Below the pieces are notes generated by a model. That model was not told the origin of the DNA, did not search any database, and worked only from the letters and a program-made list of their open reading frames with translations. DNA of 64,000 bases from Arenivirga flava (GTDB lineage Bacteria > Actinomycetota > Actinomycetes > Actinomycetales > Microbacteriaceae), in assembly GCF_030161575.1 (NCBI RefSeq), contig NZ_BSUL01000001.1, forward strand, positions 1,591,809 to 1,655,808, in the 5' to 3' direction. Within the stretch, counting starts at the first letter, position 1; every line of letters starts with the position of its first letter. Below are positions 9,443-58,707 of this stretch, piece after piece. A program made the translations under genes and the position numbers.

Positions 9443-12400
9443 CGGCGTGCCGAAGCGGTGGTTCGTGATGCTCAGCGACTGCTCCCGCAGGTACGGCAGC
9501 AGCGCCGCGCGCGGGTGCGGCGCCGGACCGACCGCGAGGTGGATCGCCGGCGAGCCGAGCGCCCACGCGATGCTCTTCGCATAGACCGGGTCGACGAGGC
9601 GGATGCGGGAGGGCCGCCGCTTCGACACCGCCCCGATCCACTGCTGGTCCGTCTCGACGAGCGCGAAGTCCGCGAACGGCACCTCCGCCTCCGACCACGC
9701 CCGCGCGACGGTCGGAGGCAGGGAGAGGGTGAGGATCGCGCCGGTGCGCAGGGCCGCGGCGATCTCGCGCAGCACGGCGACCGGGTCGGCGGCCTCGTTC
9801 ATCCGCAGCTCGATGGTGGCCGGTCGGTAGCGCAGCTCGTTGCGCTCGACGCCGAGACCCGAGGGTCTTGCGGCTCGGCGTAGCGCTCGCGCCAGGCGAG
9901 CTCGTCGCCGATGACGGCGGCGCGCAGCCCGAGCATCGCGTCGGTGGACGAGGGGTCGCCGCCGATGATCCGCTCGGCCGCCGCGAGCACCCGGGCGACG
10001 CGTTCGTGCACCTCGCCGCGCAGCGACGCCGCATCGAGGTCGAAGGGCGCGAGGTCGCCGAAGCCGAGCAGGTAGTTCGGGCCGCCGGCCTTGGCACCGG
10101 GGCCGACCGACGAGCGCTTCCAGCCGCCGAAGGGCTGGCGCCGCACGATCGCGCCCGTGATGCCGCGGTTGACGTAGAGGTTGCCGGCGCGCACCTCCTC
10201 GAGCCACAGCTCCTGCTCCTCGACGTCGAGGCTGTGCAGGCCCGCGGTGAGCCCGAAGTCCGTGGCGTTCTGCAGCTCGATGGCCTCCTCAAGGCTGCCG
10301 GCCGCCATGATGCCGAGCACCGGGCCGAACGCCTCGGTGCGGTGGAACGGGCTGCCGGGCTGCACGCCGGCCTTGATGCCGGGGCTCCACAGACGGCCCT
10401 CGTCGTCGAGTCGGCGCGGTTCGAGCAGCCAGCGCTCCCCCGGCTGCAGCACGGTGAGCGCGTCGAGCAGCTTGCCGGCGGCCGGCTCGATGAGCGGACC
10501 CATCTGGGCGCGCGGGTCCTGCGGCAGGGCCACCACGAGCGAGGCGGCCGCATCGACGAGCTGCCGCTCGAAGCGCTCGGACTCGGCGACGCTGCCCACG
10601 AGGATCGCCAGCGATGCCGCCGAGCACTTCTGGCCGGCGTGCCCGAAGGCGCTGCGCACGAGGTCGGCGACCGCGAGGTCGAGGTCGGCGCTGGGGGTCA
10701 CGACGAGGGCGTTCTTGCCGCTGGTCTCGGCGAGCAGCGGCAGCTCGGGCTTCCACGAGCGGAACAGCTCCGCCGTCTCGTAGGCGCCGGTCAGCACGAC
10801 ACGGTCGATGCCCGCGTGCGTGACGAGCCGCTTGCCGAGGTCGCCCTCGGCGACGTCCGCGAGGCGCAGCACGGACCTCGGCACGCCCGCGTCCCACAGC
10901 GCCTGCACGACGACGGCCGCCGAGCGGCGCACCTGCGGGGCGGGTTTGAGGATGACGGACGCCCCCGCGGCGAGCGCCGCGAGCACACCGCCGGCGGGGA
11001 TCGCGACGGGGAAGTTCCAGGGCGGCACGACGAGCACGAGCGTCGCCGGGGTGAAGCCGAGGTCGTCGAGCTCGGGCGCCAGGGAGGCGTAGTACTCGGC
11101 GAAGTCGGCGGCCTCGCTGACCTCCGCGTCGCCCTCGGAGAGGGTCTTGCCCGCCTCGCTCGCCATGACCTCGAGCAGCTCCTCGCGCGCCGCGCGCAGC
11201 GAGGCGGCGGCGACCCGCAGGACGCGGGCGCGCTCCTGGGCGCTCAGCCCGCCCCACTCCGGCTGGGCGGCGCGCGTCGCGGCGACGAGCCCGTCGACCG
11301 ACTCGGGCTTGGTGATCGCCGAGTCGGCCACGAGCTGCCGCCCCAGGTCGGAGTCGGCGGAGCGCTCGAGGATCGCCCGCCCCCAGGTGCGGTTCGCCGC
11401 GACGGCGGTGTCGGTGTCCGGGGTGTTCACGAAGTGCTCGTGCGCCTCCGGCTGCTCGGTCGCGCGGTCCTGCACCCGGTTCGGGCCGACCCGCGGCGAG
11501 ACGGTGAGCGCTCGGGCGGCGCGGTAGCGCTCCGCCTCCCGCTCGAAGAGCGAGTGCTCGCCGGTGAGCCGGTAGAGCGCGCTCATGAAGTTCTCGGGGC
11601 TGCCGTTCTCCTCGAGGCGGCGCACCAGGTAGGCGATGGCCGCGTCGAAGTGCTGGGGGTCGACGACCGGCGTGTAGAGCAGCAGCCCGCCGACGTCCTC
11701 GCGGATCCGCTCGCCCAGCTCGTCGGCCATGCCCAGCAGCATCTCGACGTCGACGTGCTCGCTGAGGCCGCGCCGCTCGGCGAGCAGGTGCGTGTGCGCG
11801 ATGTCGAAGACGTTCTGACCGGCGGCGCCCAGGTGCACCCAGCGCATCCGCTCGGGGTGCAGCATGCGGTCGATGACGGCGCGGTAGTTCGCATCCGTCT
11901 CCGCCTTGCTGCCGAAGGTGGCCAGCGGCCAACCGTGGATCGCCGCGTCGACGCGCTCCATCGACAGGTTGGCGCCCTTGACCACGCGGATCTTGATGGG
12001 CGCCCCGCCGGCGCGCACCCGGTCGCGCGCCCATCCGGTCAGCTCGTCGACGGCGCCCAGGGCGTCGGGCAGGTACGCCTGCACGACGATGCCGGCGCGC
12101 AGGCCGAGCAGCTCCTCGTGGTCGAGCAGCCGCCGGAACACCGCGATGGTGAGGCCGAGGTCGCGGTACTCCTCCATGTCGAGGTTGATGAACTTCGGCG
12201 TCGGGCTGGCGGCGGCGTACCGGTAGAGCGGCAGCACCCGCTCCACGACGCGCTCCACCGTCTCGTCGAAGGCCCAGAGGCCCAGGTTGCTGACGATGTT
12301 GCTGATCTTGATCGACACGTAGTCGACGTCGTCGCGCCGCAGCAGCCGGTCGATGCCCTCGAGCCGGCGCTGCGCCTCCGTCTCGCCCAGCACGGCCTCG

Positions 12401-16208: not shown

Positions 16209-16823
16209 ATGCGCACCGCCGACCTCGCCCACCAGTTCACGATCGCCCTGCCCGCGTGGATCGACGAGGAGCTCGCCGAGGTTCCCGAGGCGCTGCCGGA
16301 CCGCGACGAGCGGATGCGGCTGGTCAACCGGCTGGCGGCCCGCAACTTCCGCGAGGGCAACGGCGGCCCGTTCGCCGCCATCGTGGTCGAGACGGAGACG
16401 GGGCGGATCGTCTCGGTCGGCGTCAACGTGGTGCTCGGCACCGGCATCTCCTCCGGCCACGCCGAGGTCACCGCGCTCGGCCTCGCGCAGGCGCGGCTCG
16501 ACAGCTGGGACCTCGGCGCCGAAGGGCTGCCGGAGCACGAGCTCGTCGTCAACTGGCGGCCCTGCGTGCAGTGCTACGGCGCCACGATGTGGTCCGGCGT
16601 GCGCACCCTGGTGATCGCCGGCTCGGGCCCCGAGCTCGAGGAGATCAGCACCTTCGACGAGGGCCCGATGCACGAGCAGTGGCACGCGCAGTTCGAGGAG
16701 CGCGGCATCGCGGTGGTCACCGACGTGCTGCGCGACGAGGCGATCGAGGTCTTCCGCGCGTACCGCGAGGCCGTCGACGCGGATGCGGTGGTCGTCTACA
16801 ACGCGCGCGGCGCCGCGAGCTGA
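16209..16823 (+). CDS. nucleoside deaminase (cytidine/deoxycytidylate deaminase zinc-binding family; guanine/tRNA-adenosine deaminase-like)
   Basis: HAE…PCxxC zinc motifs (SGHAEVTALG; WRPCVQCYGA). ATG at 16209. The upstream part of the listed ORF is Arg-rich junk. Confidence 0.8.
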   Translation: MRTADLAHQFTIALPAWIDEELAEVPEALPDRDERMRLVNRLAARNFREGNGGPFAAIVVETETGRIVSVGVNVVLGTGISSGHAEVTALGLAQARLDSWDLGAEGLPEHELVVNWRPCVQCYGATMWSGVRTLVIAGSGPELEEISTFDEGPMHEQWHAQFEERGIAVVTDVLRDEAIEVFRAYREAVDADAVVVYNARGAAS

Positions 16824-16919
16824 CCCGCCCGGCGCTGCTGCGCCCCGCGGCTGCGCTCCCCCGGCCCTGCGCTCCCTCGGCCTGCGCTCCCCCGGCCGAA
16901 CCCTCGGCCCGCCCCGGTG

Positions 16920-16999
16920 CCGAATGCAGCGGGTTCCGCCACCGGCCCCGGAGTCACGCGGGCCAGGCCCGGCGTTGCGCGACGATCCACTGCATTCGG
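16920..16999. repeat. Palindromic element CCGAATGCAG…CTGCATTCGG (10-bp perfect IR, about 60-bp spacer), preceded by 3 x 16-bp tandem repeats (16847-16896)
   Basis: Direct reading. It sits in a convergent intergenic region and its core resembles the CCGAATGACGG element family. Confidence 0.6.
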
Positions 17000-17030
17000 C
17001 ATCGGGGGGCGGGCCGGAGGGCGTGGGGGC

Positions 17031-17894
17031 TCAGCTGCGGGCGTCGAGCACGGCCTGGTAGAGCTCGCGCTTCGACAGGCCGGTCGCGTCCGCGATCTCG
17101 GCGGCGGCGTCCTTCGTGCGGGCGCCGCCGGCGATGAGGCTCAGGGCCCGGCGCACGCCCTCCGCCAGGTCGGCGACCGCGGGCTGCGCGCCCTCGACGA
17201 CGACGCAGATCTCGCCGCGCACGCCGCCCTCGGCCCAGGCGGCGAGCTCCGACGCGGTGCCGCGGCGCACCTCCTCGTGCAGCTTGGTCAGCTCGCGGCA
17301 CACGGCGACGCGGCGCTCGGCGCCCATCGTCAGCGCGAGGTCGGCGAGCGACTCGGCGAGGCGGTGCGGCGATTCGAAGAAGACGAGCGTGCGCTGCTCG
17401 GCGGCGAGCGCCTCGAGCGCGCTGCGGCGCTCCCCCTGCTTGCGTGGCAGGAAGCCCTCGAAGCAGAAGCGGTCGGTCGGGAGTCCGCTCAGGGCCAACG
17501 CGGTGAGCACGGCGCTCGGGCCGGGCAGGGCGGTCACCGTGATCCCGGCCGCGGCGGCCGCAGCCACGAGCGGGAAGCCGGGGTCGCTGATCGCGGGCAT
17601 GCCCGCATCCGTGAGCACCAGCAGATCGCGCTCGCGGGCGAGCTCGACGAGCTCGTCCGCCTTCGCGTCCTCGTTGTGCTCGTGCAACGCGATCAGGCGC
17701 GGGCGCGACTCGACGCCGAGCGCGCGCAGCAGCTGGATCGTCGTGCGGGTGTCCTCCGCCGCGATGACCTCGGCGTTCTGCAGCGCCTCGACGAGGCGCC
17801 GGCTCGCGTCGCCGAGGTTGCCGATCGGGGTCGCGGCGAGGATGATCACCGCCCCATCCTCCCATCCGCTCGTCCGGGGCGCCGCCGGACGCAT
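17031..17894 (-). CDS. rsmI: 16S rRNA (cytidine1402-2'-O)-methyltransferase RsmI
   Basis: IILAATPIGNLGDAS… tetrapyrrole-methylase fold with the typical RsmI N-terminus. The exact start is uncertain. Confidence 0.85.
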   Translation of the reverse strand: MRPAAPRTSGWEDGAVIILAATPIGNLGDASRRLVEALQNAEVIAAEDTRTTIQLLRALGVESRPRLIALHEHNEDAKADELVELARERDLLVLTDAGMPAISDPGFPLVAAAAAAGITVTALPGPSAVLTALALSGLPTDRFCFEGFLPRKQGERRSALEALAAEQRTLVFFESPHRLAESLADLALTMGAERRVAVCRELTKLHEEVRRGTASELAAWAEGGVRGEICVVVEGAQPAVADLAEGVRRALSLIAGGARTKDAAAEIADATGLSKRELYQAVLDARS

Positions 17895-43653: not shown

Positions 43654-44277
43654 GTGCCCATCCGCATCGAGACCGCGACCCGTCGCGACCTGCACGAGGT
43701 GGCCGCGCTGCTCGCGACCGCCATGGAGACCGATCCGGTCTTCCTCGACGTCGTCCCGCCACGTCAGGGACGCGCCGAGGCGCTGCGCGGCTTCTTCGAA
43801 GCCTACGTGCTCACGTACACCGGGTCGGAGCGCACGATCGATGTCGCCCGCCGCGACGACGGCACGGTCATCGGGGCCGCCACCTGGGCGGTGAACCGGG
43901 TCGGCCGCGACAGCCGCTTCGGCGAGCAGCTCGCCCTCGCGCCCCGCTACCTCCGCGCGCTCGGTCCGCTCGGAGTGATCCCCCCGTACCGAGTGCAGAA
44001 GGTGCTCGAGCGGCACCGCCCGCTCGACACGCACTGGTTCCTGTCAGCGGTCGGCGTGCTCGGCGCGAACCGCGACGCCGGCGTGGGCACGGCCCTCGTG
44101 CAGTCGCGGTTGGATGCGATCGACGACGCGCAGGAGGACGCCTACGTCGAGTCGTCGACCGTGCACGACCGGCGGTTCTTCGAGCGGCTCGGCTTCGTGC
44201 CGGGGGCCCTCATCCAGGGCCTCGACCATGCGCGACCCGTCGGCATGTTCCGGCCGCCGGCCCGCCGGCGGCGCTGA
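43654..44277 (+). CDS. GNAT family N-acetyltransferase (paralog 1)
   Basis: 207 aa. Acetyl-CoA site (…ANRDAGVGTALV…). C-terminal …MFRPPARRRR. Confidence 0.65.
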   Translation: MPIRIETATRRDLHEVAALLATAMETDPVFLDVVPPRQGRAEALRGFFEAYVLTYTGSERTIDVARRDDGTVIGAATWAVNRVGRDSRFGEQLALAPRYLRALGPLGVIPPYRVQKVLERHRPLDTHWFLSAVGVLGANRDAGVGTALVQSRLDAIDDAQEDAYVESSTVHDRRFFERLGFVPGALIQGLDHARPVGMFRPPARRRR

Positions 44278-44348
44278 GCCGCTCGGCGGCACCTTCCGGT
44301 CGCCGCGTTCCGCTACGGTGTCCCCACCCGATCCCCCGGAGGAACCCC

Positions 44349-45017
44349 ATGACCGATGCCGCCGAGCGACCGGACCTGCGTCGCGCGCCGCTGAGCGTGC
44401 GCATCGAGACGGCCTCGCGCGAGGACTTCGAGGAGATCGCCGCGGTGCTGGCCGTGGCCTTCGCCGACGATCCGGTGCATCGCGACATGATCGGCCCGCA
44501 CCCGCACCGCGACCGTCGGCTCTGGCGCTACTTCGACACCCTCCTGCGGGCGACCGCGAACGACCGGCTCGAGGTCACGGTGGCCCGCGGCCACGAGGGC
44601 AGGATCCTCGGCGTCAGCGTGTGGCAGTACATGCCGGTCGGGCACGAGGGCGAGATGCCCGCCCTGCTGCCCTACCTCTCCGGGCTCGTGCGCGCGCTCG
44701 GCGCGGGGAACGCGCTGCGCGCCCTCCGCGTGCAGCGCGCGCTGCAGCGGCACCGGCCCGTCGACGAGCACTGGTACCTGCCCTTCGTGGGCGTCCTGCC
44801 CGAGGCCCGCCGCGGTCGGGTCGCGTCGGCGCTGCTCGGCACCAAGCTCTCCCAGCTCGACGAGCAGGGCGTGCCGGGCTACCTGTACTCGCGCTCCGAC
44901 GCCGACCGCCGCTTCTTCCAGAACTTCGGCTTCGGCCACGGCGCGGTCGTCGGCGGCCTCCCCTCGGCCCGCCCCCTGGCGATGTTCCGCCCGCCGGCCC
45001 GCCGGCGCCGGAGCTGA
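44349..45017 (+). CDS. GNAT family N-acetyltransferase (paralog 2, tandem duplicate)
   Basis: 222 aa. Co-linear similarity to paralog 1, including the identical C-terminal MFRPPARRRR. Confidence 0.65.
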   Translation: MTDAAERPDLRRAPLSVRIETASREDFEEIAAVLAVAFADDPVHRDMIGPHPHRDRRLWRYFDTLLRATANDRLEVTVARGHEGRILGVSVWQYMPVGHEGEMPALLPYLSGLVRALGAGNALRALRVQRALQRHRPVDEHWYLPFVGVLPEARRGRVASALLGTKLSQLDEQGVPGYLYSRSDADRRFFQNFGFGHGAVVGGLPSARPLAMFRPPARRRRS

Positions 45018-45056
45018 ACGGCGCGGCCCGCCGGCGGAGGGACGAGCGCGGCCCGG

Positions 45057-46502
45057 CTACATGCCGATGAGCGTCTCCACCGGTCCGCGGGCGAAGTAGA
45101 GCACGAAGCCCGCCGCCACGACCCAGAGCAGCGGCTTGACCTCGCGGGCCTTGCCCGAGAGCGCGCGCAGCACGACCCACGACACGAAGCCCGCGCCGAT
45201 GCCGTTCGCGATCGAGTAGGTCAGCGGCATGACGATGACGGTGAGGAAGACCGGCAGCGACACCGAGAAGTCGCTCCAGTCGACGTCGCGGATCTGCGCG
45301 ATCATCATCGCGCCGACCACGACCAGCGCGGCGGACGCGACCTCGGAGGGCACCATCTGGGTCAGCGGCGTGAAGAACAGCGCGACGAGGAAGAGCGCGC
45401 CGGTCACGAGGTTCGCCAGGCCGGTGCGGGCCCCCTCGCCGACGCCGGCGCCCGACTCGACGAACACGGTGTTCGAGCTCGCGCTCGCGGCACCGCCGGC
45501 GACGGCGCCGATGCCCTCGACCACGAGGGCCGAGCGCAGCCGCGGGAACTCGCCCTTCGCATCCGCCAGCCCCGCCTCCTTCGACAGGCCGGTGAAGGTG
45601 CCCATCGCGTCGAAGAAGTTCGTGAAGACGAGGGTGAAGACGAGCATGAGCGCGGCGAGGGCGCCGATGCGCTCGAAGGAGCCGAAGGAGACCTGACCGA
45701 GCAGCGACAGGTCGGGCAGGCTGACGACCTGGGTCGGCAGCACGGGCACGTTGAGGTTCCAGCCGGCCGCGTTCTCGCCGCCGTTCGAGGCACCGACCTG
45801 GAAGACCGCCTCGGCGACGATCGCGAGGATCGTGCTCGCGACGATGCCGATGAGCAGGGCGCCGCGCACCCTGCGGGCCACCAGCACGCCCGTGACGAGC
45901 AGGGCGATCACGAAGACCAGGGTCGGGACGGTCGCCACCGAGCCGTCGATGCCGAGGTCGACGGGCGGCGAGCCGAGCCCCGTCGCCCGCACGAAGCCGG
46001 CGTTGACCAGGCCGATGAAGGCGATGAACACGCCGATGCCGACCGAGATGGCCACCTTGAGCTGCTGCGGCACCGCGGTGAAGATGGCGCGGCGCAGGCC
46101 GGTGGCCGCGAGCAGCACGATGACGAGGCCGTTGATGAGCACGAGGCCCATCGCCTCGGCCCAGGTGACCTCGCCCACGACCGTGACGGCCAGGAACGAG
46201 TTGATGCCGAGACCCGCCGCGAAGGCGAACGGCAGGCGCGCCACGAGGCCGAACAGGATCGTCATGACGCCGGCGACGAGCGAGGTGACGGCGGCCAGCT
46301 GCGTGAAGCCGAGCTGGGTTCCCTCGATGTCGACACCGCCCGACAGGATGATCGGGTTGAGCACGACGATGTAGGCCATGGCCACGAAGGTGACCAGGCC
46401 GCCGCGCAGCTCGTTGCCGATCGAGGAGCCGCGCTCCGTGATCGAGAAGAAGCGGTCGAGTCGGGAGCGGATGGGGGTGCTGGCGGCCACGGGGGTCCTC
46501 AC
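45057..46502 (-). CDS. NCS2 family permease (AzgA-like adenine/guanine/hypoxanthine permease)
   Basis: …FSITERGSSIGNELRGGLVTFVAMAYIVVLNP… is the hallmark AzgA N-terminus. 481 aa polytopic. Confidence 0.85.
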   Translation of the reverse strand: MRTPVAASTPIRSRLDRFFSITERGSSIGNELRGGLVTFVAMAYIVVLNPIILSGGVDIEGTQLGFTQLAAVTSLVAGVMTILFGLVARLPFAFAAGLGINSFLAVTVVGEVTWAEAMGLVLINGLVIVLLAATGLRRAIFTAVPQQLKVAISVGIGVFIAFIGLVNAGFVRATGLGSPPVDLGIDGSVATVPTLVFVIALLVTGVLVARRVRGALLIGIVASTILAIVAEAVFQVGASNGGENAAGWNLNVPVLPTQVVSLPDLSLLGQVSFGSFERIGALAALMLVFTLVFTNFFDAMGTFTGLSKEAGLADAKGEFPRLRSALVVEGIGAVAGGAASASSNTVFVESGAGVGEGARTGLANLVTGALFLVALFFTPLTQMVPSEVASAALVVVGAMMIAQIRDVDWSDFSVSLPVFLTVIVMPLTYSIANGIGAGFVSWVVLRALSGKAREVKPLLWVVAAGFVLYFARGPVETLIGM

Positions 46503-51882: not shown

Positions 51883-52193
51883 GCCGCAACGGTACCGGCG
51901 CCGCCGGACGCTCCCGCGCATCCGCTCGCCGCGCCGCTCCGCGCCGACTCGCGTCGACCGGCACCGTGTCGAGGGGACGGCAGCTGCTCATCCCGCCCTC
52001 CCGAAGAGCGTCTACCGTCCCCTCGACCTCGGTCGACGCGGTGCGAGCGAGGATGGACGCGGTGCGAGCGGGAGTCGACGCGCTCGGGGTCGGGACGAGG
52101 AGCGCGAGGCCCGGGACGAGCGGCGCCCGGCACGAAGCGCCGGTACGCTCCCGGACGAGCGGACGCCCCCGCCGAACTACGATTGACGGGCCC

Positions 52194-55100
52194 ATGAGCG
52201 ACCTGACGATCACCTACCCGCCCGAGCTGCCCGTCAGCGCGCGCAAGGACGACATCGCCCGCGCGATCCGCGACCACCAGGTCGTGATCATCGCCGGCGC
52301 CACCGGGTCGGGCAAGACCACGCAGATCCCCAAGATCTGCCTCGAGCTGGGCCGGGAGTCGATCGGCCACACGCAGCCGCGCCGCATCGCCGCGCGCACG
52401 ATCGCCGAGCGCGTGGCGGAGGAGCTCGGCAGCGAGCTCGGCGGCCTCGTGGGCTACCAGGTGCGCTTCACCGACCAGGTGAGCGCCGACACGCGCATCA
52501 AGCTCATGACCGACGGCATCCTGCTCGCCGAGCTGCAGCGCGACCGCGACCTCAAGAAGTACGACACGATCATCATCGACGAGGCGCACGAGCGCAGCCT
52601 CACCGTCGACTTCTTGCTCGGCTACCTGCAGCGCCTGCTGCGCCGGCGCCCCGAGCTCAAGGTGATCGTGACGAGCGCGACGATCGACCCCGAGAGCTTC
52701 GCGCGCCACTTCGCCGACGCGAGCGGCGAGCCCGCCCCGATCATCGAGGTCTCCGGCCGCACCTTCCCCGTGGAGGTGCGCTACCGCCCGCTCGTCGCCG
52801 ACGCGGTCGAAAGCGACGATCCGGATGAGGACGGCAGCGCCGGCCAGGACCGCGACCTGAACGAGGCGGTCGCCGAGGCGATCGCCGAGCTCGGCGCCGA
52901 GGAGCCCGGCGACGTGCTCGTGTTCTTCAGCGGCGAGAACGAGATCAAGGATGCCGAGGAGCACCTGCGCGGGCGCCTGCCCGCCGGCACCGAGGTGCTG
53001 CCGCTCTACGGCCGCCTCTCCGCCGCCGAGCAGCACCGCGTCTTCGAGCGACGCGGGGCGACGGTGCGCCGCCGGATCGTGCTGTCGACCAACGTCGCCG
53101 AGACCTCCCTGACCGTGCCGGGCATCCGCTACGTCGTCGACACCGGCACCGCCCGCATCAGCCGCTACTCGACCCGCGCGAAGGTGCAGCGGCTGCCGAT
53201 CGAGGCGATCAGCCAGGCCAGCGCGAACCAGCGCTCGGGGCGGTCCGGGCGCACCAGCCCGGGCATCGCCATCCGCCTCTACTCGGAGGAGGACTTCGGC
53301 AAGCGCCCCGAGTACACCGAGCCGGAGATCCTGCGCACGAACCTCGCCGCGGTGATCCTGCAGATGATCTCGCTGGGCCTCGGCGAGATCGAGCAGTTCC
53401 CGTTCCTCACCCCGCCCGACTCGCGCGGCGTGCGGGACGGCCTCGGTCTGCTCACCGAGCTCGGCGCGATCGACAAGGATGCGCGCATCACCCGCATCGG
53501 CCGCGACCTGTCGCGCCTGCCGATCGATCCCCGCTTCGGGCGGATGGTCGTCGAGAGCCGCAAGCACGGCGTCAGCCGCGAGGTGCTCGCCATCGTCGCG
53601 GGGCTCAGCGTGCAGGACGTGCGCGAGCGGCCCGCCGAGCGCCGCGGCCATGCCGACCAGCTGCACGCGCGCTTCACGGACACGACGAGCGACTTCGTCA
53701 CGATGCTGAACCTCTGGAACCACCTGCAGGAGCGCCAGCGCGAGCTCGGCAGCAGCGCCTTCCGCCGCGAGGTGCGGGCCGAGTACCTGAACTACCTGCG
53801 CATCCGCGAGTGGCAGGACGTCTACCGCCAGCTCGCGCGCATGGCCCGGTCGTTGCAGCTCGAGGTCGGCGAGCCCAGCACCGACGCCGACGGCATCCAC
53901 AAGTCGCTGCTCGCCGGCCTCCTCGGCCAGATCGGCCTGCGCGACCAGGGCAAGAAGGACTACGCCGGGGCGCGCGGCACCCGCTTCGTGCTGTTCCCGG
54001 GCAGCGCGCTGTCGAAGGCGCAGCCGGCGGCGATCATGAGCGCCGAGCTCGTCGAGACGAGCCGCCTCTTCGCCCGGATGAACGCCGCCATCGACCCCGC
54101 CTGGGCCGAACCGATCGCGGGCGACCTGGTCAAGCGCACCTACAGCGAGCCGCGCTGGGAGCGCAGGCAGGGTGCCGTGATCGCGGACGAGCGGATCACC
54201 CTGTTCGGGGTGCCGATCGTGCCCCGCCGCAAGATCCAGTTCCGCCGGGTCGACCTCGACTACTCTCGCGACCTCTTCATCCGCCACGCCCTCGTGCAGG
54301 GCGAGTGGGACGAGCGCTACCCCTTCGAGCGGTCCAACGCGAAGCTGCGCCGCGAGCTCGAGCAGCTGGAGGAGCGCACCCGCCGCCGCGATCTGCTCTA
54401 CGACGACGAGGCCGTGTTCGCGTTCTTCGACGCGCGCATCCCGGCGGACGTGGCGACCGTGCGCGACTTCCAGGGCTGGTGGAAGACGCTGCCCGACCAG
54501 TCCATCCTCACCATGACGATGGACGACCTCGTCGAGCGGGAGGAGATCGACGAGCTCGCCGACGAGCGCGAGGCCTACCCCGAGCAGTGGCGCCAGGACG
54601 ACCAGGTGCTGCGGCTGCACTACCACTTCGAGCCCGGCGCCGACGACGACGGTGTGACCGTGATGGTGCCGCTCGCGCTGCTGCCGGGGCTGCGCGCCGA
54701 GGGCTTCGACTGGCAGGTGCCAGGGCTGCGCGAGGAGCTCGTGACCGCGCTCATCAAGACGCTGCCGAAGGGGATCCGCCGCAACGTGGTGCCCGCCGGC
54801 GACTGGGCGCGGCGCCTCCTCGCCGAGCACGTGCCCGCGGAGCCCGACGGGCGCGAGCTCGTGCAGGTGCTCGCCACCGCCATCCGCGCCGCCGCGCACA
54901 CCCCCGTCGAGCCGGGCGACTTCGACGTCGAACGGCTGCCCGCGCACCTGCGGGTCACGTTCCGCGCGGTCGACCAGCGCGGCCGCGCGGTGCGGAACGA
55001 GAAGGACCTCGCGGCGCTGCAGGCTGCGCTCGCCGAGCGCAGCCGCAGCAGCGTGGCGAAGGTCGCCGCCGCGGCGCCGAAGAACGACCTCGAGCGCAGC

Positions 55101-55958
55101 GGCATCGAGCGCTGGGACCTCGACGCGCTGCCGCAGGTGCTCGACACGAAGCAGCCCGGCGGCGTCGTGCGCGCCTACCCCTCGCTCGAGGACGACGGCC
55201 GGTCGGTCTCCATCCGGCTGCAGTCCACCCCCGAGGCGCAGCAGCGGGCGCACCGCCGCGGCGTGCTGCGCCTGCTGCAGCTGGCCACGCCGAGCCCCGC
55301 GGGCTACGTGCTCGAGCACCTGACCTCCAAGGAGAAGCTGCTGCTCGCGGCCGGGCCGTACCCCTCCGCCCGCGCGCTGATCGACGACGCGCTGGCTGCG
55401 TCCATCCGCTTCCTGGTCGATGAGCGGATGCAGGGCGCGCTCCCCTGGGACCGCGCCGCCTTCGACACCCTCCGCGAGCAGGTGAGCCAGGGCGTGCTGC
55501 CCACGCTCGACGCGACCATCGAGGTCGTGCTGCGCGTGCTCGGCGAGGCGCAGGCCGCCGAGAAGGCGCTCAAGGGCGGCACCAGCCTGGCGCTGCTGCC
55601 CGCGCTGAACGACGCGCGAGCGCAGCTGGCGGGCCTCGTGCATCCCGGCTTCGTCTCGGCCATCGGCGCCTCGCAGCTGCGGGAGGTGCCGCGCTACCTG
55701 CGCGGGCTGCAGCAGCGCCTGCAGCGGCTGGCGGAGAACCCGGGCCGGGATCGCGTCGGGCAGAACGAGGTCGAGTCGGCGACGCGGCTGTTCACCGAGG
55801 CCGGCGGCACGGTGCCGGTGCCAGCGGATGCGCCGGGACGCCTCGTGCGCACGCGCTGGCTGCTCGAGGAGCTGCGCGTGAGCGTCTTCGCGCAGACGCT
55901 CGGCACCGCCGAGCCGGCGTCGCTCAAGCGCGTGCGCCAGGCGCTGGACGGCAGGTGA
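52194..55958 (+). CDS. hrpA: ATP-dependent RNA helicase HrpA (DEAH-box)
   Basis: GATGSGKTTQ (Walker A), DEAH (IIIDEAHERS), HA2/OB domains and a long C-terminal extension. 1254 aa from the ATG at 52194. Confidence 0.9.
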   Translation: MSDLTITYPPELPVSARKDDIARAIRDHQVVIIAGATGSGKTTQIPKICLELGRESIGHTQPRRIAARTIAERVAEELGSELGGLVGYQVRFTDQVSADTRIKLMTDGILLAELQRDRDLKKYDTIIIDEAHERSLTVDFLLGYLQRLLRRRPELKVIVTSATIDPESFARHFADASGEPAPIIEVSGRTFPVEVRYRPLVADAVESDDPDEDGSAGQDRDLNEAVAEAIAELGAEEPGDVLVFFSGENEIKDAEEHLRGRLPAGTEVLPLYGRLSAAEQHRVFERRGATVRRRIVLSTNVAETSLTVPGIRYVVDTGTARISRYSTRAKVQRLPIEAISQASANQRSGRSGRTSPGIAIRLYSEEDFGKRPEYTEPEILRTNLAAVILQMISLGLGEIEQFPFLTPPDSRGVRDGLGLLTELGAIDKDARITRIGRDLSRLPIDPRFGRMVVESRKHGVSREVLAIVAGLSVQDVRERPAERRGHADQLHARFTDTTSDFVTMLNLWNHLQERQRELGSSAFRREVRAEYLNYLRIREWQDVYRQLARMARSLQLEVGEPSTDADGIHKSLLAGLLGQIGLRDQGKKDYAGARGTRFVLFPGSALSKAQPAAIMSAELVETSRLFARMNAAIDPAWAEPIAGDLVKRTYSEPRWERRQGAVIADERITLFGVPIVPRRKIQFRRVDLDYSRDLFIRHALVQGEWDERYPFERSNAKLRRELEQLEERTRRRDLLYDDEAVFAFFDARIPADVATVRDFQGWWKTLPDQSILTMTMDDLVEREEIDELADEREAYPEQWRQDDQVLRLHYHFEPGADDDGVTVMVPLALLPGLRAEGFDWQVPGLREELVTALIKTLPKGIRRNVVPAGDWARRLLAEHVPAEPDGRELVQVLATAIRAAAHTPVEPGDFDVERLPAHLRVTFRAVDQRGRAVRNEKDLAALQAALAERSRSSVAKVAAAAPKNDLERSGIERWDLDALPQVLDTKQPGGVVRAYPSLEDDGRSVSIRLQSTPEAQQRAHRRGVLRLLQLATPSPAGYVLEHLTSKEKLLLAAGPYPSARALIDDALAASIRFLVDERMQGALPWDRAAFDTLREQVSQGVLPTLDATIEVVLRVLGEAQAAEKALKGGTSLALLPALNDARAQLAGLVHPGFVSAIGASQLREVPRYLRGLQQRLQRLAENPGRDRVGQNEVESATRLFTEAGGTVPVPADAPGRLVRTRWLLEELRVSVFAQTLGTAEPASLKRVRQALDGR

Positions 55959-56124: not shown

Positions 56125-56254
56125 TTGTGGCCGTCGGAAACGCGATTTATCCTCATGTCGCTCGGGCTCGGGAACCCGCGCATCCCCCGTCAGCTACCGA
56201 GGGCGGCTCGCGCCGTGCCCCGCCGAGCCGCGCTCGGAATCCAGGAGAACAGCC

Positions 56255-56746
56255 ATGTCCAACAGCGCTCACCGCGGCACGCCGCGCCGCCGCCCGGCGA
56301 TCATCGCCCTCATCAGCCTCGTCTCGGTCGTCGGCATCGGCACCGCGGCGTACGCGTACTGGACCACGACCGGCGGCGGCTCGGGTTCCGCTGCCACCGG
56401 TGCGGTCTCGACGGTCGAGATCGTGCAGACCAGTCAGGTGACCGACCTCGCGCCCGGCTCGGGCACGCAGGCGCTCTCGGGCACCTTCAACAACCCGAAC
56501 GATGCCGCCGTCGCGGTCGGCGCCGTCGAGGCCGAGGTCGTCGTCACCGGCGCCGGGGACTGCTCGGCGGACGACTACGTCATCACCGGCACCGGCGCGG
56601 TGACCGGCGACAGCGTCCCGGCGGGCACGGGCGTCGGTTCCTGGAGCGGCCTCGACATCGCCTTCGACAACGATCCCGTCCGCAACCAGGACGACTGCCA
56701 GGGCGCCACCATCACCATCGAGTACACCCTGACGCCGGGCAGCTGA
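56255..56746 (+). CDS. small secreted protein with SipW-cognate (TasA-class) signal peptide; TasA/camelysin-like core with a Cys pair
   Basis: N-terminal basic residues, hydrophobic core, and …GTAAYAYWTTTG (compare TasA GGTWAAFND). Early mature motif VEIVQTSQVTDLAPG (compare TasA FASGTLDL). The C-terminal WSGLDIAF…DCQGATITIEYTL is shared with the paralog at 58303. RBS ggagaa. Confidence 0.5.
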   Translation: MSNSAHRGTPRRRPAIIALISLVSVVGIGTAAYAYWTTTGGGSGSAATGAVSTVEIVQTSQVTDLAPGSGTQALSGTFNNPNDAAVAVGAVEAEVVVTGAGDCSADDYVITGTGAVTGDSVPAGTGVGSWSGLDIAFDNDPVRNQDDCQGATITIEYTLTPGS

Positions 56747-56789
56747 TCGAGGCGTCGTCGCCGGAGGACCCGGGCGCACACCGGCTCGC

Positions 56790-58306
56790 ATGATGAGGCA
56801 CTCGACATCGCGCCGCCGGCACGGTCGCCGAGCGGCGTCGTCGGGGAACCGTGTGCGACTCCTCCTCGTTCCGGCCGTGCTGCTGAGCCTCGCGCTGGGG
56901 CTGCCGAGCGGAGCGCTCGCCCACTGGACGGCCGAGGGCAGCGGCACCGGGACGGGTACCACCTCGGCTCTCGGAGCGCCGGTCGCCGAGGCCGCGCGCA
57001 TCGCCGGCACGAACACGATCGTCATCAGGTGGAGCCCGCCGGTCGCGAGCGTCGGCCACACGGCGTTCCATGTTCAGCGCTCGCCGGCGGGCGGTGCGAC
57101 GTGGGTCGACGCGTGCGGCTCCGACGCCGCGCCGATCCCGGGCACGTCCTGCTCGGACACCCCGACGTCGACGGGCACCTGGACCTACCGCGTCATCGCC
57201 CAGCAGGGCACCTGTCGCACGCCCAGCGACGAGACCGCGCCCATCGCCACCGACCACGTGCGCCCGACCGTCACCATCGAGCAGGCGACCGGACAGGCGG
57301 ACCCCACCCGCGCGCTCCCCATCCGCTTCGCCGTCGAGTTCAGCGAGGCCGTGACGGGATTCGACACCGGCGACGTCGCCATCGCCGGCACGGCCGACGT
57401 GACCGGGGCGACGGCGACGGTGACTCCGCAGACGGCGACGCGCTTCTCCGTCGAGGTCACCGGCGTCACGTCCAGTGCCCCCGCAGGGGCACGGTCGTGG
57501 CGTCCATCGCCGAAGGACGGGCTCGGGATGGCTTCGGCAACGGCAACGTCGCCTCCACGAGCGCAGACGCCACCGTGCTCTACGACCCCAGTCCTCCCGC
57601 GGTCCCGATCGCTCCCGATCTCACCGCAGCGACGGACACGAGCGCGCCATCGCTCATCGCGACGAACGGGCGCGCGGACGACATCACCCGTTCCGAGACC
57701 CTGACGTTCACCTCAGCCGAGGCCGTCCCCGCGACGACGCTGCCCGCCGACACGGCCGGGGGCAGCGTCCGCCTCTACCGGTCGACCACCGCGACCGGCG
57801 CGAGCGATCCCGCGCAGCCGGTAGCGATCGCCGAGATCGTGGGCGGGGGTTACACGCTGAGCGACCCCGGCTCGGCCGGGCTCGCCGACGGCACGTACCA
57901 CTACTCGGTCCGCCTCCTCGATCGAGCCGGCAACACGAGCGCGGAGAGCCCGCGGCTCGCCGTCACCCTGGACCGCAGCGCACCGGTGCCGTCGATGGCC
58001 TACACGCGGTCCATCGTCACCCTCGTCCCGCTGCTGGGCAGTGTGACGGTGGCGGGAACGGCACCGCACGCCCCGGGCGATCTGCTGCCGCTCGACATCC
58101 GCGTCTGCAGTGGCTCCTCCACCGGCTGCGCGACGGCGAGCACCGCGACCGTCATGGCCGATGCGTCGACCGGGTCGTACAGCTACACCACGGGATCCCT
58201 GCTCGGCGGCATCCTGTCGAGCAGCACGGCCCAGGTCTCGCAGTACGACCGAGCCGGCAATCGCGGCTCCAGCGCGCCGGTCACGTTGCCCGGCCTGCTC
58301 GGATGA
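56790..58306 (+). CDS. large secreted Ig-like/FN3-like repeat surface protein with SipW-cognate-type signal peptide; disrupted by a 1-nt deletion in a G4 run at 57486-57489
   Basis: Signal region …LLSLALGLPSGALAHWTAEGSGTG…. FN3-like segment (IVIRWSPP…TWTYRVIAQQ) and bacterial Ig-like repeats (…DHVRPTVTIEQATGQADPTRALPIRFAVEFSEAVTGFDTGDV…). The reading continues in the -1 frame after …TSSAPAG; adding one G restores the frame. ATGA overlap with the next gene. Confidence 0.55.
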
Positions 58307-58707
58307 TCCCCCTCCGCTGGTGGGGCGTCGTCGGCGCCGTCGTCCTGCTCGCGCTGCTGCTCCTCAGCGTCCCCGGGCCGCCGGGTCCGCTCCAGGTGCG
58401 CCAGACGGGCGACGTGAGCGACCTGATGCCCGGTGAGCGGCGCGAGCTCGTCGGCGTGATCGACAACCCGGGCGGCGTCCCGCGCACCACCTCCCAGCTG
58501 AGCGCCGCGGTCACCGGGACCAGCCACCCGGCCTGCGGCCCGGAGTTCTTCGTCATCGAGGGCTCGCCGCTCGCCGTCGACCTCACCGTGCCCCCGGGCC
58601 CGGACCAGGCCGCCTGGTCGGGGCTGCTGATCGCGCTGCTGCCCGAGGCGGCGGCCCGCGAGGCGTGCCAGGGTGTCGAGGCCACCATCGACTACGCGCT
58701 GCGCTGA
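58303..58707 (+). CDS. small membrane-anchored/secreted protein, paralog of 56255-56746 (TasA/camelysin-like core)
   Basis: N-terminal TM (WWGVVGAVVLLALLLLSV), then LQVRQTGDVSDLMPGE…, …CGPEFFVIEGS…AAWSGLLIAL…ACQGVEATIDYAL. It aligns with protein 56255 at VxQTxxVxDLxPG / C / VIxG / WSGLxIA / CQGxxxTIxY. Confidence 0.5.
   Translation: MIPLRWWGVVGAVVLLALLLLSVPGPPGPLQVRQTGDVSDLMPGERRELVGVIDNPGGVPRTTSQLSAAVTGTSHPACGPEFFVIEGSPLAVDLTVPPGPDQAAWSGLLIALLPEAAAREACQGVEATIDYALR

Follow-up and report, generated by a model that had tools for sequence, protein, structure and literature searches.

The classical covalent fibres on the surface of Actinobacteria are pili linked by sortase. For the locus described here the nearest point of comparison is the TasA/TapA/SipW system of Bacillus subtilis (PF12389; TIGR04088, NF046066). 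The donor strand of TasA is formed by residues 28-38, the first 11 residues of the mature protein after SipW cleavage, with F29 among the hydrophobic contacts, and TapA, which has the same N-terminal segment, is predicted to provide the first strand (PMC9674648); its N-terminus, in front of a complete Ig fold, is all that it donates (PMC10151520). Archaeal AbpA/AbpB, of the archaeal bundling pili (ABP) of Pyrobaculum calidifontis, have no dedicated peptidase and their AxA site is cut by a generic enzyme; AbpA reaches 97% HHpred probability against PF12389 over signal peptide and body, and AbpB was proposed to be both initiator and adhesin (PMC9245690). Here we analyse a three-gene locus of Arenivirga flava (Microbacteriaceae, Actinomycetota) located at positions 56255-58707 of a 64 kb stretch of contig NZ_BSUL01000001.1 (the window), with all features on the forward strand and the genes numbered 1 to 3 from the 5' end. 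We read this locus as the minimal version of a widespread, unnamed operon of Actinomycetota, whose Sec-exported products have a TasA-class N-terminus in common.

Gene 1 encodes an exact match to a hypothetical protein of A. flava and belongs to a large family that has no Pfam or NCBIfam model. A word-indexed search returned 117 homologues, all of them annotated as hypothetical and none with Pfam domains, and an exhaustive profile search gave 6432 clusters (50% identity) at E<=1e-3 and 3026 at E<=1e-10. In the GTDB species genomes, scanned with a 36-sequence alignment of the gene 1 family as query, 227 matching stretches were confirmed and 78 loci were retrieved, almost all from Actinomycetota. 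The hosts include Microbacteriaceae, Arthrobacter, Nocardioides, Phycicoccus, Symbioplanes, Acidimicrobiia, Solirubrobacterales and two Chloroflexota. Gene 1 is a member of class A, which heads recurrent A-B-(C)-D operons; the order in the window is A-D-B. Class A proteins consist of a signal peptide, the extension that starts with AxA↓YWT (the arrow marks the predicted cut) and a beta-sandwich. Class B has the same sandwich behind a hydrophobic segment that lacks the A-x-A↓YW motif, and class C, optional and often present, has the motif and a divergent sandwich. Class D proteins (470-1700 amino acids) carry the motif followed by fn3, Big_7, Big_13 and discoidin-like modules, usually without an A-type sandwich. 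Across 87 loci, 184 open reading frames (ORFs) contain the sandwich, of which 120 have a hydrophobic segment plus the motif and 51 a hydrophobic segment without it. Besides the operon's own family, no gene family was found in more than 19 of the 87 loci, most of the recurring families being antisense-shadow ORFs over the operon itself, and no ATPase, sortase or usher recurs beside it. A PIP synthase gene and PdxS, conserved upstream in ten loci, were attributed to ordinary lineage synteny.

The operon varies among lineages. Far larger class D proteins, of 545-1583 amino acids, are encoded at L003:12183-13820, L004:11186-15937 and L006:10544-14902, with F5_F8_type_C, CHB_HEX_C, Fn3_assoc and Big_7 modules related to carbohydrate binding and adhesion, and in L004 a Kelch-repeat protein is encoded just 3' of the class D gene. 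The class B proteins of four Arthrobacter loci (L029, L060, L062 and L084, at about 10450-11340) have 280-330 amino acids and contain an extra Ig-like domain of about 110 residues between the membrane segment and the sandwich, which suggests a longer stalk than in the 134-residue protein of the window. Two A-B operon copies less than 10 kb apart occur in L016, L038, L066 and L072, all from metagenome-assembled genomes (MAGs) of uncultured Actinomycetota; in L016 they lie at 9920-11112 and 16436-17563, so that the module is duplicated in some genomes. Directly 5' of the A gene of L006 there is a gene for an extracytoplasmic function (ECF) sigma factor (Sigma70_ECF), followed on its 3' side by a small gene (L006:8878-9856); this sigma factor may be a dedicated regulator in that lineage and is absent from the window.

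Gene 1 (GMA28374.1/WP_284231725.1; 56255..56746) was confirmed as an intact ORF of 163 amino acids. Its product is composed of a signal peptide (residues 1-34) terminating in the invariant A-x-A, a conserved mature N-terminal extension, YWTTTGGGSGSA, from residue 35 to about 54, and an Ig-like beta-sandwich (residues 55-163) with a Cys103-Cys148 pair. In the AlphaFold2 model, with a predicted local distance difference test (pLDDT) score of 82.7, a six- to seven-strand sandwich scores above 90 from residue 50, and residues 1-45 are of low confidence and poorly defined. The basic and hydrophobic N-terminal segment followed by a motif, which an earlier reading made from the sequence alone (the sequence-only reading) had described for genes 1 and 2, is present in both, as 'AYAYWTTTG' in gene 1 and 'ALAHWTAEG' in gene 2. 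Conservation in the gene 1 family is highest at the end of the signal peptide and in the first mature residues, not in the body. The consensus is A-x-A followed by Y-W-T-x-x-G-x-G-x-G-x-A, with AxA and G-x-G-x-G invariant among the 117 homologues, and the body retains a near-invariant Cys pair and an 'NQDxCK' segment. At the predicted cleavage site, 83-100% of the sequences have A at -3, and A, G or S occupies -1. The residue at +1 in classes A, C and D is one of Y, F, H and W, and that at +2 is W or F (once Y); only classes A and C have G at +6, +8 and +10.

Gene 3, of class B (GMA28377.1/WP_284231728.1), was identified from its ORF, homologues and AlphaFold2 model. It occupies 58303..58707 and encodes 134 amino acids, identical to another A. 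flava hypothetical protein, and its start overlaps the stop of the frame before it in an ATGA, as had been read earlier. The hydrophobic helix at about residues 6-23 lacks an AxA site, and PGPPGP comes after it; the sandwich (residues 26-133) pairs with residues 50-159 of gene 1, and the YWT extension is absent. The AlphaFold2 model (pLDDT 85.4) contains a helix at residues 11-22 and a sandwich equivalent to that of gene 1. The paralogy of genes 1 and 3 claimed in the sequence-only reading was upheld by BLASTP (32% identity, E 2e-14) and at profile level by hhalign (98.5%, E 2e-15, 108 columns), and both the common motifs (VxQTxxV(T/S)DLxPG, WSGLxIA and CQGxxxTIxY) and the common Cys pair (C103/C148 in gene 1, C78/C122 in gene 3) were recovered. 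Gene 3 is probably a membrane-anchored paralogue of gene 1. It belongs to a narrow clade of 134-residue proteins with only eight close homologues. The first eight residues (58303-58326), on the cytoplasmic side before the membrane helix, are a near-invariant M-(I/L)-P-x-R-W-W-G in the nine orthologues, and MAFFT paired this RWWG with the AYWT of class A.

The relation to TasA is clearest at the N-terminus. A conserved segment directly after the cleavage site, with an aromatic residue at +2, is present; A-x-A↓Y-W-T is invariant or nearly so in class A, and classes C and D keep the core of the motif, which lines up with LA↓YWTD of TIGR04089. Matches to curated models were judged against cut-offs of 22.5 bits for PF12389, 19 bits for TIGR04088 (a 34-position N-terminal model) and 60 bits over the full length for TIGR04089. 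With PF12389, 36 of the 117 homologues gave sub-threshold matches (E<=10, best E 9.8e-5), and the next family had 5. The homologue P0104 scored 18.1 bits, with residues 10-65 aligned to positions 10-63 of the 196 in the hidden Markov model (HMM), a part that runs from the signal peptide through the mature N-terminus and along the first strand as far as the PGD turn. The NCBIfam models with the most family members matched were TIGR04089, TIGR04090 and TIGR04088, and the TasA model was also among those found. Seven of the 117 homologues matched TIGR04088 below threshold (best E 0.026) and 11 matched TIGR04089 weakly. As positive controls, proteins of two related loci, L025 and L085, scored 23-34 bits with TIGR04088, and L025:1960-2481 scored 127.9 bits with TIGR04089. 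Using an alignment of the TIGR04089 family built from the verified member beside the SipW gene in L025, hhalign related this family to the gene 1 family (84%, E 7e-6) over 43 N-terminal columns only, pairing AAYAYWTttGSG of the gene 1 family with AGTLAyWtDs. Sequence similarity is limited to the signal peptide and about 10-30 further residues. At the structural level, the best PDB hit of Foldseek for both models was the TasA fibre 8AUR (gene 1, E 5e-3 and template-modelling (TM) score 0.41; gene 3, E 3.5e-3 and TM score 0.45), and the Pyrobaculum bundling pilus 7UEG was ranked 24 among the matches of gene 1. An HMM of the body aligned with the 'L.PGD...V.N.G' segment of TasA, a score reached by 1 of 500 shuffles. 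On this evidence the N-terminal domain can credibly be assigned to the TasA/SipW-cognate class, and homology of the body to TasA is possible.

Compared with the TasA system, the locus has a similar long-hydrophobic Sec signal with a small-x-small site and aromatic and polar residues after it (TWA↓AFND in TasA, AYA↓YWTT here), a beta-sandwich that contains an 'L.PGD...N.G' segment and ends in a strand of the form 'N..QG.T.T..F/Y', and, in gene 2, a protein that like TapA has only the N-terminal segment in common, placed before Ig folds. It differs in several ways: the body, with about 110 amino acids against 230 in TasA, is roughly half as large and has a conserved disulfide, the donor-like segment is rich in Gly, the hosts belong to the Actinomycetota, and the operon has no SipW and adds a membrane-anchored paralogue without the segment. 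The TIGR04089 (exp_by_SipW_III) 'alternate-type signal peptide' proteins are from the same phylum, have about 170 amino acids and a similar N-terminus (GTLA↓YWTDTG, compared with AAYA↓YWTTTG), and both kinds are found side by side in one Nocardioides locus. However, their bodies have no detectable profile similarity to the gene 1 family, their genes adjoin SipW-type peptidases, which those of the gene 1 family almost never do, and the A/B/C/D operon with a large Ig-repeat protein is a feature of the gene 1 family. AbpA/AbpB resemble the present proteins as a divergent TasA relative for which sensitive methods are needed, without a linked dedicated peptidase and with a larger downstream protein, AbpB, proposed as first-strand donor and adhesin. 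Unlike the present family, they are archaeal, the PF12389 match of AbpA extends over the body instead of only the N-terminal part, and their filaments were seen by cryo-electron microscopy, whereas the family described here is known from genes alone. Chaperone-usher pili (Fim/Pap) are comparable by analogy only, as here too an N-terminal extension, an acceptor fold or both would set the position of a subunit in the fibre, and CFA/I and Saf pilins and chaperones are among the weak fold matches; they differ by their chaperone and usher, both lacking here, the present host is Gram-positive, and there is no evidence of homology.

These comparisons suggest a model for the assembly of the three proteins. 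The product of gene 1 (A) would be cut by type I signal peptidase after the invariant A-x-A, exposing a Y-W-T-x-x-G-x-G-x-G-x-A segment in front of the disulfide-bonded Ig-like sandwich. The product of gene 2 (D) agrees with it in the predicted cut site and in the residues that come next, after which it has fn3/Ig domains and no A-type sandwich; that of gene 3 (B) would hold its sandwich behind an uncleaved membrane anchor and has no N-terminal segment. By analogy with TasA/TapA and AbpA/AbpB, the exposed segment of one subunit could dock into the sandwich of the next by donor-strand complementation. B would then be a membrane-anchored base that acts only as acceptor, A the shaft, both donor and acceptor, and D, donor only, either a distal adhesin or an initiator similar to TapA and AbpB. 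Cleavage may be carried out by the housekeeping type I signal peptidase or by an unlinked SipW-type enzyme, so that a dedicated peptidase nearby would be unneeded. An exported, strand-forming segment fits the invariant A-x-A, the W and G residues at alternate positions, which would lie on one face of a strand, and the conserved disulfide; class D proteins elsewhere carry adhesin-type modules (Big_7, discoidin and CHB_HEX_C). The data show the gene structures, the paralogy, the size of the family, the architecture of the operon, the similarity of the N-terminus to SipW-cognate families and the absence of a linked peptidase; that the proteins are cleaved and polymerise, and which role each of A, B and D takes, we infer. 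Whether they build a TasA/ABP-like fibre with base, shaft and tip, joined by donor strands, is in our view as likely as not.

Several observations weigh against this model. The sequence-only reading had likened the proteins to the TasA/camelysin family and its SipW-processed signal peptides; the resemblance of the N-termini of genes 1 and 2 to this class stood, but membership did not, as no window protein passes the threshold of PF12389, TIGR04088 or TIGR04089. Genes 1-3 gave no PF12389 match at E<=1 and gene 1 none at E<=10, genes 1 and 2 had no TIGR04088 match at E<=1, and TIGR04089 matched none of the window proteins. A profile comparison of the body only with TIGR04089 found nothing, nor did a profile search of the PDB sequences, and the Foldseek matches are weak, with none at E<=1e-3. 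Similarity between the sandwich body and other TasA-like bodies is marginal or absent: for the segment aligned in TasA, 25 and 31 of 500 shuffles reached the score obtained with two actinobacterial TasA-like proteins, and in two further ones (five were tested) the body HMM found nothing. The putative donor segment is rich in Gly, Ser and Thr instead of being alternately hydrophobic, the AlphaFold monomer leaves it disordered (pLDDT about 53), and cleavage of the products of genes 1 and 2 is only predicted. In addition, gene 2 is frameshifted, and the module may therefore be inactive in the present strain.

The sequence-only reading took gene 2 for a single ORF of about 505 amino acids from 56790 to 58306, but this span has 1517 nucleotides, which is not a multiple of 3, and is made up of two ORFs in different frames, one at 56790..57704 and the other ending at 58306. 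ORFs, tblastn, a domain scan and G+C content at third codon positions (GC3) place the 5' part of this class D gene at 56793..57488 (frame 3), the start of the orthologues corresponding to the second ATG (56793). This part begins with a signal peptide (residues 1-43, ...GALA↓HWTAEGSGTG) and the N-terminal extension in common with gene 1, continues with an fn3-like domain and breaks off two thirds of the way through a Big_12-like Ig domain. The 3' part (57488..58306, frame 2), delimited by tblastn and by domain and motif scans, encodes the rest of this Big_12-like domain and, after it, a Big_13 domain and an Ig-like region at the C-terminus, with neither an LPXTG motif nor a C-terminal anchor on inspection. 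Its Big_13 match (PF19077, gathering score 27 bits) agrees with the Ig-rich nature attributed to gene 2 earlier, reaching 35.3 bits in the 3' ORF, 29.5 bits in the repaired protein and 43.8-54.3 bits in the orthologues; the Big_12 match is sub-threshold. The frameshift site, CCCCC GCA GGGG (57478..57489), defined by tblastn, repair and GC3, is one base short in relation to intact orthologues of 470 and 477 amino acids, with the base lost at the G-run near 57486-57489. In tblastn with the orthologues as queries the frame switches at about 57488, between ...VTGVTSSAPAG and GTVVASIAEG..., and GC3 falls from 0.92 to 0.64 across the break in the first frame and rises from 0.67 to 0.89 in the second. 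Insertion of a fifth G gives ...SSAPAGGTVVASI..., which aligns without gaps with ...SSATGGGTVIVSI... of an orthologue, and the repaired protein has 504 amino acids, with Big_12 HMM positions 1-99 spanning the junction. Programmed -1 frameshifting was ruled out, since there is no slippery heptamer and the orthologues are single-frame, and phase variation was judged unlikely with a tract of just 4-5 bases.

The interrupted gene 2, the tip protein of the proposed model, is either broken or mis-sequenced. If the one-base deletion is real, the locus would be decaying, the module pseudogenised and without current function in this strain, an explanation to which we assign somewhat less than an even chance. 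The frame break falls within a conserved Ig domain, exact translations of the first gene 2 ORF are absent from the protein collection, and the numbering of GMA28374 and GMA28377 suggests, from the numbers alone, that the depositors called two intervening CDSs. On the other hand, the lesion is a single one in a C5/G4 homopolymer context typical of sequencing error, the GC3 of the correct frame is still high on either side (0.89-0.92), and genes 1 and 3 are intact, as are the genes of close relatives: intact orthologues are found at L007, which has the same hrpA-GNAT-gene 1-gene 2-gene 3 synteny, and at L008 (GCA_011800905.1).

Alternatively, A, B and D could all retain uncleaved signal anchors and form a non-polymerising surface complex of tethered Ig-like envelope proteins or adhesins, in which the Y-W pair would line the membrane interface as an aromatic belt and the Gly/Ser/Thr stretch would serve as a flexible stalk. 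The hydrophobic stretch of gene 1 (residues 15-34) has about 20 residues, a membrane-spanning length, yet the hydrophobic region of the TasA signal peptide is equally long and is cleaved (PMC9674648). The segment that follows is of low complexity and predicted to be disordered, but G at +6, +8 and +10, on one strand face, is hard to square with a floppy stalk. Gene 3 clearly has no cleavage site, as such a complex would have it; the small residues at -3 and -1, however, are invariant or nearly so in A, C and D, following the rule for type I signal peptidase, and an anchor does not need them. A complex of this kind also leaves unexplained why a paralogue without the segment occurs together with a large protein that has the segment alone, and we consider it unlikely.

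A further possibility is a classical SipW-dependent system made of ordinary, divergent SipW-cognate members, whose peptidase gene lies at another place in the A. flava chromosome. The N-terminal profile fits the SipW-cognate TIGR04089 family and the sub-threshold matches converge on TIGR04088, TIGR04089 and TIGR04090, but the window proteins stay below the TIGR04088 and TIGR04089 cut-offs, which the L025 controls pass. As the sequence-only reading had stated, no SipW is encoded nearby: motif searches, and phmmer --max run with two Bacillus sequences and four SipW-type sequences that had been verified, found no signal peptidase of either type in the window, which extends 56 kb upstream and 5 kb downstream of the locus. 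That this absence is an anomaly was not supported; it is the rule, as 83 of the 86 related loci also lack such a gene, and archaeal TasA homologues, served by a generic enzyme, provide a precedent (PMC9245690). A peptidase verified by TIGR02228 lies within 10 kb in three loci (L025, L071 and L085), about 7 times the chance expectation of 0.5%, a rough estimate that assumes one cluster per 4 Mb genome. In the Nocardioides locus L025 the operon lies directly 3' of genes for a TIGR04089 protein, a SipW-type peptidase, a TasA-like protein and another SipW-type peptidase. A linked peptidase is thus the exception in the gene 1 family, and the specificity of the housekeeping type I signal peptidase is also AxA. 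We rate an unlinked SipW of this kind as quite improbable. In the same locus (Nocardioides sp. MAG, NZ_JAOPXM010000173.1), L025:3640-4599 encodes a SipW-type peptidase (TIGR02228, 70 bits) with a C-terminal extension of about 150 residues that holds the TasA-class motif ...GWAAPWTDDVVISGTTVT...; the protein has the appearance of a fusion between a peptidase and a substrate-like domain.

Other types of surface protein were rejected: sortase pili, as none of the three proteins has an LPXTG-like motif and no sortase-like family recurs in the 87 loci; type IV pilins or pseudopilins, as G↓F(M)TLxE is absent and the conserved motif comes after the hydrophobic segment, not before it; and lipoproteins or metalloproteases, as lipobox and HExxH are absent from all three.

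Upstream of the locus is the helicase gene hrpA (51966-55958), and on the 3' side of the locus are genes for a luciferase-like monooxygenase, an FMN reductase, a glutathione peroxidase, a CMD-family protein and lipB; these flanking genes have no functional relation to the three-gene locus. The AT-richer leader reported earlier is real as a dip but only a mild one, with a G+C content of 0.65 over 56130-56200 against 0.73 in the window. A possible promoter (56125..56153; TTGTGG, a 17-nucleotide spacer and TATCCT) was noticed by eye in the sole AT-richer stretch of the spacer between hrpA and gene 1; it is weak and was missed by the consensus scan, which found neither promoters nor terminators. 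A Shine-Dalgarno-like AGGAGA (56243..56248) is seen in the sequence 6 nucleotides 5' of the gene 1 ATG. A fourth, weak match to the gene 1 profile in the window (43979-45067, E 0.019) was discarded as an off-frame ORF over two GNAT genes. At 43654-44277 and 44349-45017 there are two adjacent paralogous ORFs of about 207 and 222 amino acids, both ending in ...MFRPPARRRR, which from their translations alone were taken to be tandem GNAT-type acetyltransferases.

Members of the gene 1 family are annotated just as hypothetical proteins because no Pfam or NCBIfam model describes them, and the family deserves profile models of its own. The locus is best filed with the TasA/ABP-like systems; the actinobacterial family to which it belongs is large and uncharacterised. 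An unrecognised class of surface fibre may even exist in Actinomycetota and a few Chloroflexota, one that works without sortase, chaperone or dedicated peptidase and is ordered by the distribution of donor segment and acceptor sandwich, with B as base, A (with or without C) as shaft and D as adhesin, although we regard this wider proposal as rather doubtful. If the reading is correct, TasA-type N-termini need no dedicated SipW, and donor-strand assembly of the TasA/ABP type reaches a third major lineage with a much smaller subunit. The distribution of the N-terminal segment among the proteins provides a directly testable model of assembly. A TasA-like self-assembling module would then be present in hundreds of actinobacterial species, among them soil- and plant-associated Arthrobacter, Nocardioides, Microbacterium and Cryobacterium, and would be a new candidate for a role in adhesion and biofilm formation.

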